In this document: positions 8,415 through 12,573 of the stretch, piece by piece
Position numbering within the stretch: position 1 is the stretch's first letter
Layout of the letters: the number at the start of each line of letters is the position of its first letter
Notes under the pieces: model-generated
Told to the model about the DNA's origin: nothing
The model's input: only the letters and a program-made list of their open reading frames with translations
Databases searched by the model: none
Made by a program: the position numbers and the translations under genes
NCBI GenBank assembly: GCA_963769055.1
Contig: CAVYKF010000006.1
Span: forward strand, 224,212-248,211
Direction: 5' to 3'
DNA from: an uncultured Alphaproteobacteria bacterium
GTDB taxonomy: Bacteria > Pseudomonadota > Alphaproteobacteria > Micropepsales > Micropepsaceae
DNA: 24,000 nt

Positions 8415-9674
8415 ATGACGAAATTCTGGTTGACCTGTTCGGCTCTTGCGATTTCGGCCCTGGCGGGCACGCCTGCCCTGGCGGCGCCGGCCTGCGATCC
8501 CGGCAATGGCGGCATCACCTTGCCGAAGGGATTCTGCGCCATGGTGGCGGTGGACAATATCGGCACCGCGCGTCACGCGGTGGCCGCGGCCAATGGCGAT
8601 CTCTACGTCGCGCTGCAGGCCAACGGCGGCAGAGCGGGCGGCGTGATGGCCCTGCATGATTCCAAGGGCGACGGTCATTTCGATGTGCAGAAGAAATTCG
8701 GCGACGGCAGCGCCACCGGCATCGGCTTTCACGACGGCTATCTCTATGTCGCGCAGCCCACCCAGGTCATTCGCTACAAAATGACTCCAGGCCAGCTGGT
8801 ACCGGCCGGACAGCCCGAAACCGTGGTGTCCGGCTTCGACAGCGCGCGCGAGCATAGCGACAAGGGCCTGGCCTTCGACGACAAGGGCTTTCTCTATGTC
8901 AATGTCGGCAGCCCTTCCAACGCCTGCCAGGCCCGCGATCGCCAGAAAGGCTCGCCCGGCCAGGACCCCTGCCCGATCCTGGAAAAGCACAGCGGCATCT
9001 GGAAATTCGATGCGAGCAAACTGAACCAGACACAGGCCGACGGCACCAAGATCGTCACCGGCCTCCGGCAGGAGCCCGATGTCGCCTGGGCCTATGGCGC
9101 CGCCTATACGGTGATGAACAATCGCGACCAGATCGACACGCTCTATCCCGAGCATTACACCGCCGAGGACAACAACAACGGTCCGGCGGAAGTCATGTAT
9201 CGCGCCGATCCGGGATCGGATTTCGGCTGGCCCTATTGTTACTACGATTATCGCCAGCAGAAGCTGCTGCTCAGTCCCGAATATGGCGGCGACGGCAAGG
9301 AGGCCGCCCGTTGCAGCAAATTCACCCTGCCCACCGCCAGTTTTCCGGCCCACTGGGCGCCCGTCGATGTGATGTTCTATGAAGGCAAGCAATTTCCCGC
9401 CAAATATCAGGGCGGCGCCTTCATCGCTTTTCACGGTTCCTGGAATCGCGCGCCGGAACAGCGTCCCGGTGCCGTGGTGTTCCAGCCTTTCGCGAACGGC
9501 AAGCCTTCGGGCAAATTCGAAATCTTCGCGAATGACTTCGGAGGCCCGACGCCGGTGAAAAACCAGAGCGAATATACCGCGCGTCCGGACGGCGTGGCGA
9601 TGGCGCCCGACGGCTCGCTTTACATCACCGACAGCGAGAGGGGCAAAATCTGGCGCGTCTTCTATCGCGGTTGA
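8415..9674 (+). CDS. Secreted sorbosone-dehydrogenase / PQQ-dependent sugar dehydrogenase-like beta-propeller protein
   Basis: 419 aa from the ATG at 8415, preceded by GGGAGA. The signal peptide is MTKFWLTCSALAISALAGTPALAAPA. REHSDKGLAFDDKGFLYVNVGSPSNAC and the C-terminal PDGSLYITDSERGKIWRV resemble the sorbosone dehydrogenase family. Confidence 0.65.
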   Translation: MTKFWLTCSALAISALAGTPALAAPACDPGNGGITLPKGFCAMVAVDNIGTARHAVAAANGDLYVALQANGGRAGGVMALHDSKGDGHFDVQKKFGDGSATGIGFHDGYLYVAQPTQVIRYKMTPGQLVPAGQPETVVSGFDSAREHSDKGLAFDDKGFLYVNVGSPSNACQARDRQKGSPGQDPCPILEKHSGIWKFDASKLNQTQADGTKIVTGLRQEPDVAWAYGAAYTVMNNRDQIDTLYPEHYTAEDNNNGPAEVMYRADPGSDFGWPYCYYDYRQQKLLLSPEYGGDGKEAARCSKFTLPTASFPAHWAPVDVMFYEGKQFPAKYQGGAFIAFHGSWNRAPEQRPGAVVFQPFANGKPSGKFEIFANDFGGPTPVKNQSEYTARPDGVAMAPDGSLYITDSERGKIWRVFYRG

Positions 9675-10414
9675 GACTTCGCGGCGGCCTCGCCGGCAAA
9701 GGATAGCAGGCGGGGCGCGCCGGTCTTGTTCGTGCAGGGCGAACGGGCGGCATAGCGCATTTCGGCCCGACCTCCGGTCGCCAGGATTTCCGTGTAACTG
9801 ACGGTCTCGGCATCGTCGCGATGCATGCAGACGGAAAAAGCGTCCCGCTCCGGCCGATGCGACCGGTGCAGCTTGCGCAGCCAGGCAGGCGTTAGTGCGG
9901 GCGCGCTTGCGGCAGCGGCGCGCACCATGTCGGCTCGCTTGCGGTTCACCGCTGCCTCGTCGTAACCGGACGAGAACCAGTGTCGGCGCGTCCAGCCATG
10001 CCGCCGGGCGCGCAGGACCGCCCCATCCCAGCGCCACTCCCACACCGCGCGATCCGTCATGGACGCCACGATGAGCCGGAATGGATTAAGGCGCGGCAGC
10101 GGCATCTCCGCGAACAGATTGCCGACGCCGGCAAGATCGTCCGCTGCGAGCAGCTGCGGAATCACGATGCCCCGGCTGATGCATAGCGCCCGGTCGCGCT
10201 GCGGCTTGGCATACCAGTTGATCAGGGCAAGCGTCAGACCCGCGTCATTGACGCCGATCCAGGTGCCGCCGCCCGGCTCGCTGGGATGGAGCGCCTTGCG
10301 GGACCCGGCTTTGCGGCGCCGGGGTGCCAGGCCGCGCGGACGCGACTTGCGTTCATCCCGGTTCATGGCAAGCATGAAGCCCGTGCGCGTGGGCAAAAAG
10401 GAAACCGTGCACAT
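9662..10414 (-). CDS. NRDE-family (TANGO2-like) protein, putative N-terminal Cys nucleophile hydrolase/transferase fold
   Basis: 250 aa. It starts MCTVSFL (Met-Cys) and carries the eponymous AMNRDE motif. Its ATG at 10412-10414 is 3 nt downstream of the ATP-grasp stop. Confidence 0.8.
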   Translation of the reverse strand: MCTVSFLPTRTGFMLAMNRDERKSRPRGLAPRRRKAGSRKALHPSEPGGGTWIGVNDAGLTLALINWYAKPQRDRALCISRGIVIPQLLAADDLAGVGNLFAEMPLPRLNPFRLIVASMTDRAVWEWRWDGAVLRARRHGWTRRHWFSSGYDEAAVNRKRADMVRAAAASAPALTPAWLRKLHRSHRPERDAFSVCMHRDDAETVSYTEILATGGRAEMRYAARSPCTNKTGAPRLLSFAGEAAAKSQPR

Positions 10415-12037: not shown

Positions 12038-12573
12038 GCCGACCTGCGCGCGGACTCGATCTGCTTTTGATATTCGATTGTCGATGGCGCGACCCCGAAA
12101 TCCTCCGGCACGGGAATTTTCCGCGTCCCGCAGATCAGGCCGATCAATGCGTAGTGATGAATGGCGTGAGAAACCGTATACATGATTTCCCGGCCGAGCG
12201 TGGATGCCGCCGAACAGGATCCGGAGCCGGCGTAGGAAATCTTGTATCGCGCCTCGATCGTCCTTTCGAGGGGAACGGCGGCGAGAAACCTGGCCGCTTG
12301 GCGGAATTCCCTGGTGATCTGGAGCGCGAACAGCCTTTCCTGCTCCAGGCGCGCGTCCCGCTCGCGCCGGTCATAGTCGATCCCGGTTTCGTTGACGGCT
12401 TCGAGCAGAATCTTGAAGTGTTCGAGACTGTGCCGATAATGCGCCCCGATCGACGCGCCGGAACCGTCATCGGCATACTGCGCGTCGCTCAGTCCGCTCA
12501 GGAAATATTCGCCCTGCTCGAGCACCTCGTCCATTGCCGCAAGAAGATGGTTGGTGCTCATGCCGATCCCCAT
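12034..12573 (-). CDS. DinB/YfiT-like four-helix-bundle metalloprotein (tentative)
   Basis: 179 aa. Histidines lie in GAHYRHSLEHF and VSHAIHHYALI, in the pattern of the DinB-superfamily His triad. An alternative start exists at 12561. The assignment rests on motif spacing only. Confidence 0.55.
   Translation of the reverse strand: MGIGMSTNHLLAAMDEVLEQGEYFLSGLSDAQYADDGSGASIGAHYRHSLEHFKILLEAVNETGIDYDRRERDARLEQERLFALQITREFRQAARFLAAVPLERTIEARYKISYAGSGSCSAASTLGREIMYTVSHAIHHYALIGLICGTRKIPVPEDFGVAPSTIEYQKQIESARRSA

Follow-up and report, generated by a model that had tools for sequence, protein, structure and literature searches.

The DNA studied here is a stretch of 24,000 nucleotides (the window) from an uncultured alphaproteobacterium of the family Micropepsaceae (assembly GCA_963769055.1, contig CAVYKF010000006.1, positions 224,212 to 248,211 of the forward strand). 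Its minus strand carries three closely packed genes which, judging from their arrangement, form one operon. In the order of transcription, they encode a DinB-like protein, a fusion of a DedA/VTT membrane domain with an ATP-grasp ligase domain (DedA/VTT::ATP-grasp), and an NRDE/TANGO2-like protein. The analysis described below indicated that the three very probably work as one membrane system, which may act on aminolipids. The genes and the elements that join and precede them are as follows.

12034..12573, minus strand: DinB-like gene (open reading frame list, 179 amino acids; likely start M5 at 12561)
10418..12037, minus strand: DedA/VTT::ATP-grasp fusion gene (open reading frame list, 539 amino acids)
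9662..10414, minus strand: NRDE/TANGO2-family gene (open reading frame list, 250 amino acids; Cys2 at 10409-10411; N18-R19-D20-E21 at 10352-10363)
12034..12037, minus strand: ATGA overlap of the DinB-like stop TGA and the fusion ATG (read from the sequence)
10415..10420, minus strand: fusion stop (10418-10420) and 3-nucleotide spacer TCC (10415-10417) (read from the sequence)
12622..12650, minus strand: promoter-like element, TTGTGT (12650-12645), 17-18 nucleotides, CACTAT (12627-12622) (comparative alignment)

The G+C content at third codon positions was 0.74-0.80 in all three open reading frames, which is the bias of genuine genes (the window has 63% G+C). The first junction reads TCG GCA TGA, with the ATG-A common to the fusion start ATG ACC GCG. 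The second reads GCC GAT TGA TCC ATG TGC ACG, with the ATG of the NRDE gene at 10414-10412, and its spacing seemed typical of translational coupling. This packing of three minus-strand genes had been described in a sequence-only reading of the window, made by a model without database searches, and its coordinates for the genes, the ATGA overlap and the 3-nucleotide spacer proved exact. Since the 3' end of the NRDE gene runs by 13 nucleotides into a convergent β-propeller gene (8250..9674, plus strand), the operon terminates there. At the other end, the first gene probably starts at 12561 and not 12573, since the sequences of most DinB-like homologues begin with the counterpart of M5 (MSTNHLL).

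When the 260 nucleotides upstream of the DinB-like gene were aligned between the window and its alphaproteobacterial relatives, one block, cTTGTG...GAaTTcCCACTAT, was at least 80% conserved. It lies 50-60 nucleotides 5' of the first gene in the alphaproteobacterial clade, embedded in GAATTCCCACTAT, and was the only conserved stretch in the 300-nucleotide upstream region, the remainder being divergent among these relatives. The block at 12622-12650 may therefore act as the promoter of the operon. A generic scan for sigma-70 promoters and terminators around the operon gave nothing useful and missed this block.

Domains and conserved residues of the three proteins

The fusion protein was divided into a membrane domain, an interfacial segment and a ligase domain that ends in a conserved tail.

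11468..12037, minus strand: DedA/VTT membrane domain, residues 1-190 (Pfam, invariant columns, AlphaFold2 (AF2) model)
11303..11467, minus strand: juxtamembrane segment, residues 191-245 (invariant columns)
10421..11302, minus strand: ATP-grasp ligase domain, residues 246-539 (PDB profile, Foldseek, invariant residues)
10421..10435, minus strand: near-invariant tail [Y/H]-P-x-A-D-COOH, YPLAD here (family alignment)

The membrane domain, which was all-helical in the AF2 model, matched Pfam VTT_dom at residues 32-143 (E=6e-17; 62.7 bits vs a cutoff of 33.9). It carries the DedA signature E22-D23, G50..D55 and R103-F-V-P-G-x-R109. Across 56 sequences E22, D23, D55 and R109 were invariant and R103 was at least 90% conserved; we take these charges, which YqjA-type proteins require, to correspond to E39, D51, R130 and R136 of YqjA. 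With the DedA/VTT family, including the UptA/PopT flippases, YqjA/YghB and the TMEM41B/VMP1 scramblases, the domain thus has in common a VTT score above the cutoff and the membrane-embedded E/D residues with the R-x5-R motif (RFVPGxR). Unlike in that family, it is joined or translationally coupled to an ATP-grasp domain, and its scores against the UptA and DedA equivalogs were far below their cutoffs. No report of a DedA-ATP-grasp fusion was found in the open-access literature.

The juxtamembrane segment follows the pattern R-W-x-x-W-E-F-W-P...F-Y-x-P...A-N-P-G-x-x-x-G-G-x-x-G-E-S-K, in which W199, E200, F201, W202, P203, N232, P233, G234, G238, G239, G242, S244 and K245 were invariant. In the model it forms an amphipathic helix (204-221) followed by a low-confidence loop (228-241). 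This interfacial segment accompanied the ATP-grasp domain in every architecture found.

The C-terminal 340 residues of the fusion gave only sub-threshold ATP-grasp matches in Pfam and NCBIfam, with RimK at E=0.075 (13.1 bits vs a cutoff of 21) and cyanophycin synthetase at 17 bits vs 850, although a few relatives of the fusion do reach the RimK cutoff. The clade is divergent and lies outside the existing family models, and no characterised member of it was found. A profile of 17 homologues searched against the PDB matched the G domain of cyanophycin synthetase over residues 279-377 (E=0.0036), and also a CPS-like protein, Ddl and GshAB, with E values in the range of 0.004-0.05. The AF2 model of the fusion, built from the 56-sequence alignment, had a mean predicted local distance difference test score (pLDDT) of 79.8. 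Its Foldseek search against the PDB gave 219 matches at E<=1e-3, and the best 50 of these 219 were all ATP-grasp carboxylate-amine ligases, with GshF at the top, followed by CphA1/CphA2 and Ddl (E 1e-7 to 3e-5).

Residues K294 (VLKP), Q327-E328-Y329, N412-H413-x-Q415-G416, R448-x-D450 and E469-x-N471 were invariant in the 56 sequences, the last two reading R448-Y-D450 and E469-L-N471 in the window. Their putative roles in phosphate binding, as the hinge, in stabilisation of the acyl-phosphate and in Mg2+ binding were assigned from the standard ATP-grasp motif pattern and not from a superposition; we take them to be those of DdlB (R255/D257/E270/N272) and RimK. The nucleotide- and Mg-binding residues that the sequence-only reading expected of an ATP-grasp enzyme are thus present, with the lysine, hinge and Mg motifs all invariant.

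With the CphA G domain, GshF, RimK and Ddl, the fusion shares the fold, the VLKP lysine, the QEY hinge and the R-x-D...E-x-N Mg2+ site, and it has the GDG-x-x-T-x-E-x-L insert as in CphA. The predicted chemistry is also the same, namely formation of an acyl-phosphate and then of an amide. The fusion differs from these ligases in its low identity (9-19%), in scoring below all curated cutoffs and in its substrate domain. The canonical N-terminal substrate domain is absent, as the VLKP strand is separated from the final helix of the membrane domain by only about 70 residues, partly of low confidence. The DedA domain and the invariant interfacial segment stand in its place.

The tail of the ligase domain had AD as its last two residues in about 195 of about 200 window-clade relatives and was flexible in the AF2 model (pLDDT<50 at 534-539). 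Such a conserved, disordered end could suggest self-directed or carrier chemistry, in which the protein uses the carboxylate of its own [Y/H]-P-x-A-D-COOH tail and the NRDE protein releases the product, with LysW/LysX, RimK on ribosomal protein S6 and tubulin tyrosine ligase as precedents. Related ATP-grasp enzymes do act on the C-termini of proteins and peptides. The tail is nevertheless absent in some hydrolase-fused relatives, such as P0385, which ends in SHKN, and P0409, which ends in PMAN, and a role in docking or autoinhibition would explain its conservation just as well. We consider self-directed chemistry highly improbable.

The NRDE protein begins with MCTVSF and carries AMNRDE. It matched Pfam TANGO2 (PF05742; E=4.5e-8; 34 bits vs a cutoff of 22.6), with an alignment limited to residues 1-121 and to positions 1-128 of the 257 in the model, and the family profile matched the crystal structures of human TANGO2 (8sv7/9bwa) at E=7e-8. 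In 43 sequences C2 was nearly invariant, N18-E21 were invariant and N66 was conserved. C2, N18, R19, D20 and N66 align with Cys2, Asn25, Arg26, Asp27 and Asn75 of TANGO2, which were proposed as the catalytic set of a Cys-Ntn hydrolase in a 2026 structural paper (PMC13044924). The same paper places TANGO2 structurally near isopenicillin N acyltransferase (IAT), bile-salt hydrolase (BSH), acid ceramidase and NAAA, and proposes fatty-acid derivatives as the substrate class, the hydrolase activity of the human protein being still a proposal (PMC13044924). In addition, TANGO2 is reported to bind acyl-CoA (PMC11867700). By this alignment Cys2 is the predicted N-terminal nucleophile of the window protein, and a weak NCBIfam match to a C45 autoproteolytic acyltransferase/hydrolase was also found (E=3e-4).

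The C-terminal half of the NRDE protein did not align with the TANGO2 sequence, including the region of the oxyanion residues Asn157/Lys166, and has invariant motifs of its own, namely H145-W-F-S-S, H183, H186, C196-x-H-R199 and C227. The H145-W-F-S-S and C196-x-H-R199 motifs hold candidate oxyanion and Lys/Arg residues. The Met-Cys start, the NRDE motif and the Asn75 equivalent are therefore common to human TANGO2 and the window protein. The bacterial clade differs from TANGO2 in that only its N-terminal half aligns and in that it is linked to an ATP-grasp/DedA enzyme and to aminolipid synthases, a context undescribed for TANGO2.

The DinB-like protein of the window scored below the Pfam cutoffs (DinB_2 and DinB at E~0.01; 16.7 bits vs 24.8 and 15.8 vs 23), but DinB_2 was matched by 40 of 43 homologues at E<=0.01, with a best value of 1.2e-6. 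Its AF2 model (pLDDT 91.3) is an up-down-down-up four-helix bundle with a predicted β-hairpin insert at residues 105-125. The top 20 Foldseek matches in the PDB were all of the DinB/YfiT fold, with template modelling (TM) scores of 0.44-0.63, probabilities of 0.84-1.0 and weak E values (4e-3 to 0.2). At the top stood YfiT, DR0053, the mycothiol S-transferase of M. tuberculosis and BstA (TM scores of 0.55-0.63). The family profile found no meaningful match among the PDB sequences. Six histidines were invariant in the family (H45/H48/H52 and H136/H139/H140), at plausible positions for a predicted metal site. The window protein thus shares with the DinB/YfiT superfamily, which includes the bacillithiol and mycothiol S-transferases and the N-terminal domains of EgtB and OvoA, the four-helix-bundle fold, with His on helix 2 and H-x-x-H-H on helix 4, where a metal triad usually sits. 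It differs in its scores below the Pfam cutoffs, its β-hairpin insert and its partner genes, which are unlike those of any characterised DinB enzyme.

All four domain calls of the sequence-only reading were borne out, those of DedA and TANGO2 above the Pfam cutoff, that of ATP-grasp by the PDB profile and Foldseek, and that of DinB by the homologues and Foldseek. Neither Pfam nor NCBIfam holds a specific family for any of the three proteins.

Conservation of the trio in split and fused forms

More than 3,000 full-length relatives of the fusion were found. A scan of one genome per GTDB species gave 80 loci of the window type (18 alphaproteobacterial and 62 non-alphaproteobacterial), in which the Rhizomicrobium-like Alphaproteobacteria had 65-81% identity to the window fusion and the Verrucomicrobiota and a few others about 50%. 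Among the loci with room for the neighbouring genes, DinB was present in 72 of 73, NRDE in 68 of 73, and both in 62 of 67. The order DinB-like, fusion, NRDE on one strand was nearly universal, with the genes abutting or overlapping, and the distance from the fusion stop to the NRDE start had a median of 5.5 nucleotides and a minimum of -1 (68 loci).

A second sample comprised 80 metagenome loci (L089-L168), in most of which the protein is fused to an α/β-hydrolase; the loci of both samples were annotated with hidden Markov models built in this analysis. Within 4 kb, in the loci with room, DinB was found in 30 of 45 and NRDE in 22 of 42. The place of the NRDE gene differs between the two clades: it follows the fusion in that of the window but precedes it where the hydrolase is fused.

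Split forms were found among cultured or named homologues, located by tblastn against PLSDB. Salinivibrio kushneri (L172 6339-9423) has four abutting separate genes, which RefSeq names 'VTT domain-containing protein', 'D-alanine--D-alanine ligase', 'DinB family protein' and 'NRDE family protein'. DedA and ATP-grasp are also separate neighbouring genes in Vibrio aquimaris and in Paracoccus denitrificans PD1222. On plasmid 1 of the latter (L171 6920-10646), a transmembrane (TM)-ATP-grasp gene (PDEN_RS24485) is followed by an α/β-hydrolase gene, by DedA on the opposite strand and then by a type I methionyl aminopeptidase gene, with no DinB or NRDE nearby; the host is genetically tractable.

A HMMER search with the ATP-grasp part alone gave 2,686 cluster representatives (E<=1e-3), whose lengths correspond to TM plus ATP-grasp (about 350-390 residues), the DedA fusion (about 540) and longer forms of 800-935 and about 1,100 residues. 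Of the long homologues (>700 residues), 34 of 39 contained Abhydrolase_1 and 31 of 39 VTT, and two had a TANGO2 domain at the extreme N-terminus. One protein of 1,121 residues (P0391) combines MCTVTL...NRDE, in which Cys2 is kept, a TM helix, an α/β-hydrolase, DedA and ATP-grasp in a single chain, and a DinB_2 gene lies directly 5' of its gene.

Chance juxtaposition of the genes was ruled out by the cross-phylum linkage, the varying gene order, and the split and fused forms. Mere inherited synteny was excluded as well, because the gene order differs and both split and fused forms exist. The recurrent linkage of fusion homologues to DinB-like and NRDE genes, which the sequence-only reading had left to neighbourhood analysis, was therefore found, up to the fusion of NRDE in one polypeptide. 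It is very probable that the trio is one functional membrane system. The system was seen in soil Verrucomicrobiota, Alphaproteobacteria, Vibrionaceae, Paracoccus, Azospirillum and others, under existing annotations such as 'VTT domain-containing', 'NRDE family', 'DinB family' or 'hypothetical'. No description of the cassette was found in the open-access literature. The earlier statement that no characterised pathway combines these modules also stood, since no paper or curated family model was found that assigns the trio.

Link to aminolipid synthases and the predicted reaction

The main new finding concerned the genes beside the cassette in the wider family. In the hydrolase-fused clade the usual order is OlsB-like, OlsA-like, DinB-like, NRDE and then [hydrolase-]DedA-ATP-grasp. 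Within 4 kb, in the loci of L089-L168 with room on both sides, an OlsB-like gene was found in 14 of 20 and a PlsC/OlsA-like gene in 13 of 20. These neighbours were mostly co-directional and upstream, often with overlapping genes (for example L112). The neighbouring GNAT protein matched Acetyltransf_5 (E=5e-30), with the OlsB equivalogs as its best NCBIfam match (E=4e-41), and the neighbouring acyltransferase matched PF01553 (E=6e-27), with the OlsA equivalogs as its best NCBIfam match (E=3e-43).

Similar arrangements occurred elsewhere. Acetyltransf_5, Acyltransferase, the fusion and an ECF sigma factor lie together in two loci (L086/L087), an OlsB-like gene follows the ATP-grasp gene by 10 nucleotides in Variovorax, and an OlsF-like gene stands beside a 1,121-residue mega-fusion in another locus (L083). 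In Vibrio aquimaris (L174, NZ_CP045351, 6322-12014) the cluster consists of DedA, ATP-grasp, DinB, NRDE, YHS, DoxX and OlsF-like genes, and the OlsF-like protein of 585 residues is a full-length match of NF052615 (E=1e-126). By our own estimate, chance adjacency to such a synthase, present as one or two genes per genome of a few Mb, is well under 1%. Near the mega-fusion and the OlsF-like gene of L083, a gene with a TMEM164 (PF14808) domain (7436-8209) was observed as a further lipid-remodelling neighbour; eukaryotic members of the TMEM164 family are lipid acyltransferases.

The sequence-only reading had proposed a membrane lipid, a lipid-linked carrier or a small thiol as the target. The evidence favours the membrane-lipid branch, through the OlsB/OlsA and OlsF operons, whereas the other two are downgraded to rivals because no matching pathway genes recur. 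We tentatively read the operon as the minimal core of a widespread inner-membrane module for tailoring and flipping acyloxyacyl aminolipids, that is, ornithine-type N-acyl amino acid lipids, a reading that falls a little short of probable. That the substrate is an aminolipid of the OlsBA/OlsF type is, by a narrow balance, probable. That the ATP-grasp domain amidates the head-group carboxylate is possible, at a lower level of confidence.

On the tailoring and flipping reading, the ATP-grasp domain would phosphorylate the free α-carboxylate of the amino-acid head group of the lipid at the cytoplasmic face. In chemical terms this carboxylate is similar to the peptide C-terminus that is extended by the closest structural relatives, CphA1, GshF and RimK. 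Coupling of the activated carboxylate to an amine or to an amino acid would then lengthen the head group or alter its charge, and the fused DedA domain would present the lipid to the ligase and/or shift it between the leaflets. Cys2 of the NRDE protein may hydrolyse or transfer an amide on the same lipid, which would serve reversal, editing or acyl transfer, as IAT and BSH can perform, and the DinB-like protein may be a metal-dependent accessory enzyme. In the long forms the α/β-hydrolase would be periplasmic, because a single TM helix separates it from the cytoplasmic NRDE domain as judged from topology, and the lipid would be handled on both leaflets.

A more specific form of this reading, which we regard as rather doubtful, makes the fusion a founding member of aminolipid head-group ligase-flippases, which would be the enzyme type still lacking for ATP-dependent amidation of the ornithine-lipid carboxyl group, as in cerilipin synthesis, and takes the NRDE protein to show the ancestral role of TANGO2, as a Cys-Ntn amidase/acyltransferase on N-acyl amino acid lipids. 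The NRDE protein and the ATP-grasp domain would then be cytoplasmic and the hydrolase of the long forms periplasmic, with DedA shuttling the lipid between them.

The modules each belong to known superfamilies, and for the predicted coupling of head-group tailoring with lipid translocation MprF, an aminoacyl-phosphatidylglycerol synthase fused to its own flippase, offers a precedent in logic. There, too, a cytoplasmic head-group enzyme is covalently joined to a translocating membrane domain. The likeness is an analogy only, since MprF differs in folds and lipid class and forms a tRNA-dependent ester in place of an ATP-dependent amide. MurT/GatD, whose substrate is lipid-anchored and is modified on the cytoplasmic side, and the glutathionylspermidine (Gsp) synthetase/amidase also pair an ATP-dependent amide former with a Cys-dependent amidase or glutaminase. 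MurT/GatD combines a Mur ligase and a class I glutaminase, whereas the Gsp system combines an ATP-grasp enzyme and a CHAP domain, so no homology to NRDE or DedA is implied.

For the lipid reaction itself, the nearest parallel is the synthesis of cerilipin, the taurine-ornithine lipid of Gluconobacter cerinus, in which the predicted reaction type is the same, an ATP-dependent amidation of the head-group carboxylate. According to a 2026 review, the transfer of taurine to the carboxyl of ornithine lipid is ATP-dependent and has no assigned enzyme or gene (PMC12971839). A homologue in Komagataeibacter, of the Acetobacteraceae, is a stand-alone TM-ATP-grasp protein that lacks DedA, DinB and NRDE; its neighbours are an S-adenosylmethionine (SAM) methyltransferase and a redox enzyme containing iron, and this arrangement bears neither for nor against the taurine idea. 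OlsG, one of the tailoring enzymes OlsC/D/E/G, is encoded within olsH-olsG-olsI, beside ornithine-lipid synthase genes, as is the cassette in the wider family. The α/β-hydrolase OlsI acts as an ornithine-lipid O-acyltransferase (PMC12493201).

The presence of two hydrolase-type modules, NRDE and the α/β-hydrolase, raised the alternative of aminolipid turnover or salvage, which overlaps with the tailoring and flipping reading. In this alternative DedA would bring ornithine-type lipids back from the outer leaflet, the NRDE amidase and the α/β-hydrolase, as an esterase, would take them apart, and the ATP-grasp enzyme would reuse the amino acid or fatty acid set free. In structure NRDE is related to lipid amidases (ceramidase, NAAA and BSH), and the 2026 review of ornithine lipids names no degradation enzymes: the word 'degradation' is absent from it, and 'hydrolase' appears once, for OlsI (PMC12971839). 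On the other hand, co-transcription with synthases in many lineages typifies tailoring over catabolism, an ATP-consuming ligase has no clear job in pure degradation, and an α/β-hydrolase can be an ornithine-lipid O-acyltransferase, as is the case for OlsI (PMC12493201). Turnover or salvage thus seems unlikely.

The DedA domain and the Ddl-like fold could instead point to a polyprenyl-phosphate-linked envelope precursor, modelled on the amidation of lipid II by MurT/GatD. DedA would bind or flip the carrier, the ATP-grasp enzyme would ligate or amidate a carboxylate of the linked peptide or sugar acid, and the task of NRDE would be to provide ammonia or to take the group off again. The best curated match of the DedA domain was UptA (E=2e-11 in the window and 1e-17 in P0385), RefSeq names the Vibrionaceae homologue a D-alanine--D-alanine ligase, and Ntn-Cys enzymes include class II glutaminases. 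These UptA scores were, however, only 44-65 bits vs a cutoff of 250, and no peptidoglycan, O-antigen, teichoic-acid or glycosyltransferase genes recurred in about 170 neighbourhoods. The linkage to OlsB, OlsA and OlsF would also be left unexplained. A carrier-linked precursor is therefore quite improbable.

Redox and metal genes formed a second group of neighbours. In the non-alphaproteobacterial loci of the window type, a DoxX-family protein with four TM helices was encoded directly 5' of DinB in 53 loci (L019-L080), a secreted YHS-domain protein was found in 31, an ECF sigma factor in 24, a zf-HC2-type anti-sigma factor in 14 and DUF1223 in 18. A ferric-reductase-TM plus Rieske protein, MsrB and an FMN-reductase-like gene were also recurrent. 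In the window itself the system is reduced to its core of three genes, DoxX, YHS and the α/β-hydrolase being absent, and a DipZ-like DsbD-thioredoxin gene lies 1.4 kb downstream of the operon.

Such neighbours are what membrane metabolism of a low-molecular-weight thiol might lead one to expect. In that case the ATP-grasp enzyme would synthesise or lengthen a small thiol-containing peptide or amide in the manner of GshB/GshF and glutathionylspermidine synthetase, with DinB as a thiol S-transferase of the bacillithiol/mycothiol kind, NRDE as an amidase like Gsp amidase or EgtC, and DedA as the exporter. This idea fits GshF as the top Foldseek match of the ligase domain and the matches of the DinB-like model to mycothiol S-transferase and BstA. 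It also fits the recurrence nearby of thioredoxin-like, AhpC/TSA, MsrB, DUF1223, DoxX and ECF sigma genes with zinc-finger anti-sigma genes, as well as the DipZ-like gene of the window. Against it, no cysteine ligase, γ-glutamyl ligase or other thiol-pathway gene recurred in the neighbourhoods, the ligase has lost the soluble substrate domain at its N-terminus and is tied to the membrane in every case, lipid acyltransferases and not thiol enzymes stand out as the recurrent biosynthetic partners, and the α/β-hydrolase fusions would have no obvious role. We judge thiol metabolism to be improbable.

Several observations weigh against the tailoring and flipping reading, too. No OlsB-, OlsA- or OlsF-like gene was found in the 24-kb window, or within 6 kb in the 18 alphaproteobacterial relatives, and OlsB/OlsA-like genes were within 6 kb in only 10 of 62 non-alphaproteobacterial loci of the window clade. 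Because no Ols-like gene lies nearby, the lipid link of the window locus is made by homology only. The Ols-like neighbours themselves scored below the NCBIfam equivalog cutoffs (141-175 bits vs 300-350, and 424 vs 620), so their amino-acid specificity cannot be read from these matches. The DedA domain of the window had UptA as its best NCBIfam match (44.2 bits vs the cutoff of 250). Homologues in Azospirillum and Komagataeibacter had no partner genes nearby. The reading also relies on inference for the direction in which the ligase works, for its amine and for what NRDE and DinB do. In addition, the redox, thiol and metal neighbours (DoxX, YHS, ECF/anti-sigma, MsrB, DUF1223, thioredoxin-like, ferric-reductase-Rieske and DipZ) are unexplained, and none of the models accounts for them. 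No paper linking DedA, ATP-grasp, DinB or TANGO2 to aminolipids was found in the open-access literature.

Surrounding genes and biological meaning

Upstream of the operon, on the same strand and at a distance of 300 nucleotides, a gene at 12875-13225 encodes a secreted protein of 116 residues with a signal peptide. Its C-terminal half is rich in His, Trp, Asp and Arg (…HWHDYHEGRGYWRNGVW), and it had no Pfam match. Farther upstream, a peptidase of the M28 family (14821-16429, minus strand) appears to be broken over at least three overlapping frames, namely 15653..16429 with a signal peptide, 15223..16005, and 14955..15956 with the Peptidase_M28 match; either the gene is a pseudogene with frameshifts or the assembly is wrong here.

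Downstream of the operon lies the convergent gene of a secreted β-propeller (GSDH/NHL-like; 8250-9674, plus strand). Its listed start at 8250 is doubtful, because the open reading frame there overlaps the DipZ-like gene, and a start at a later Met followed by a signal peptide, at about 8415, is likelier. The region 2379-8295 (minus strand) encodes the DipZ-like protein with DsbD_TM and thioredoxin domains, then a trypsin-like protease and a MoxR AAA+/DUF58/VWA-BatA cluster. This downstream synteny (propeller, DipZ-like, protease and MoxR/DUF58/VWA) was common to close alphaproteobacterial relatives only, and tells little about the function of the operon.

The Vibrio aquimaris cluster bears on the vca0649-0646 operon of V. 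cholerae. This four-gene operon was recently described as of 'unknown function', quorum-sensing-controlled and HapR-activated, the OlsF paralogue VCA0646 is its last gene, and overexpression of vca0646-0647 is reported to be lethal. The V. aquimaris cluster suggests what the neighbours of VCA0646 may be, and VCA0647 and VCA0648 may be the DoxX and YHS genes.

These results define a conserved, so far undescribed multi-protein membrane system. It provides a candidate gene family for the ATP-dependent amidation of the ornithine-lipid head group, an activity known since the 1970s without a gene, and it points to further tailoring of aminolipids, a lipid class of importance for growth under phosphate limitation, for tolerance of stress and for susceptibility to polymyxin. 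The DedA domain gains an enzymatic partner, which could reveal the cargo of that DedA clade. Bacterial TANGO2/NRDE proteins gain a defined genetic setting, in which an amide ligase, a lipid transporter and lipid acyltransferases are their neighbours or fusion partners. For human TANGO2, the protein of TANGO2 deficiency disorder, heme handling, acyl-CoA binding and Ntn hydrolysis are competing proposals of function, and with a tractable bacterial system the chemistry could be put to a direct test.

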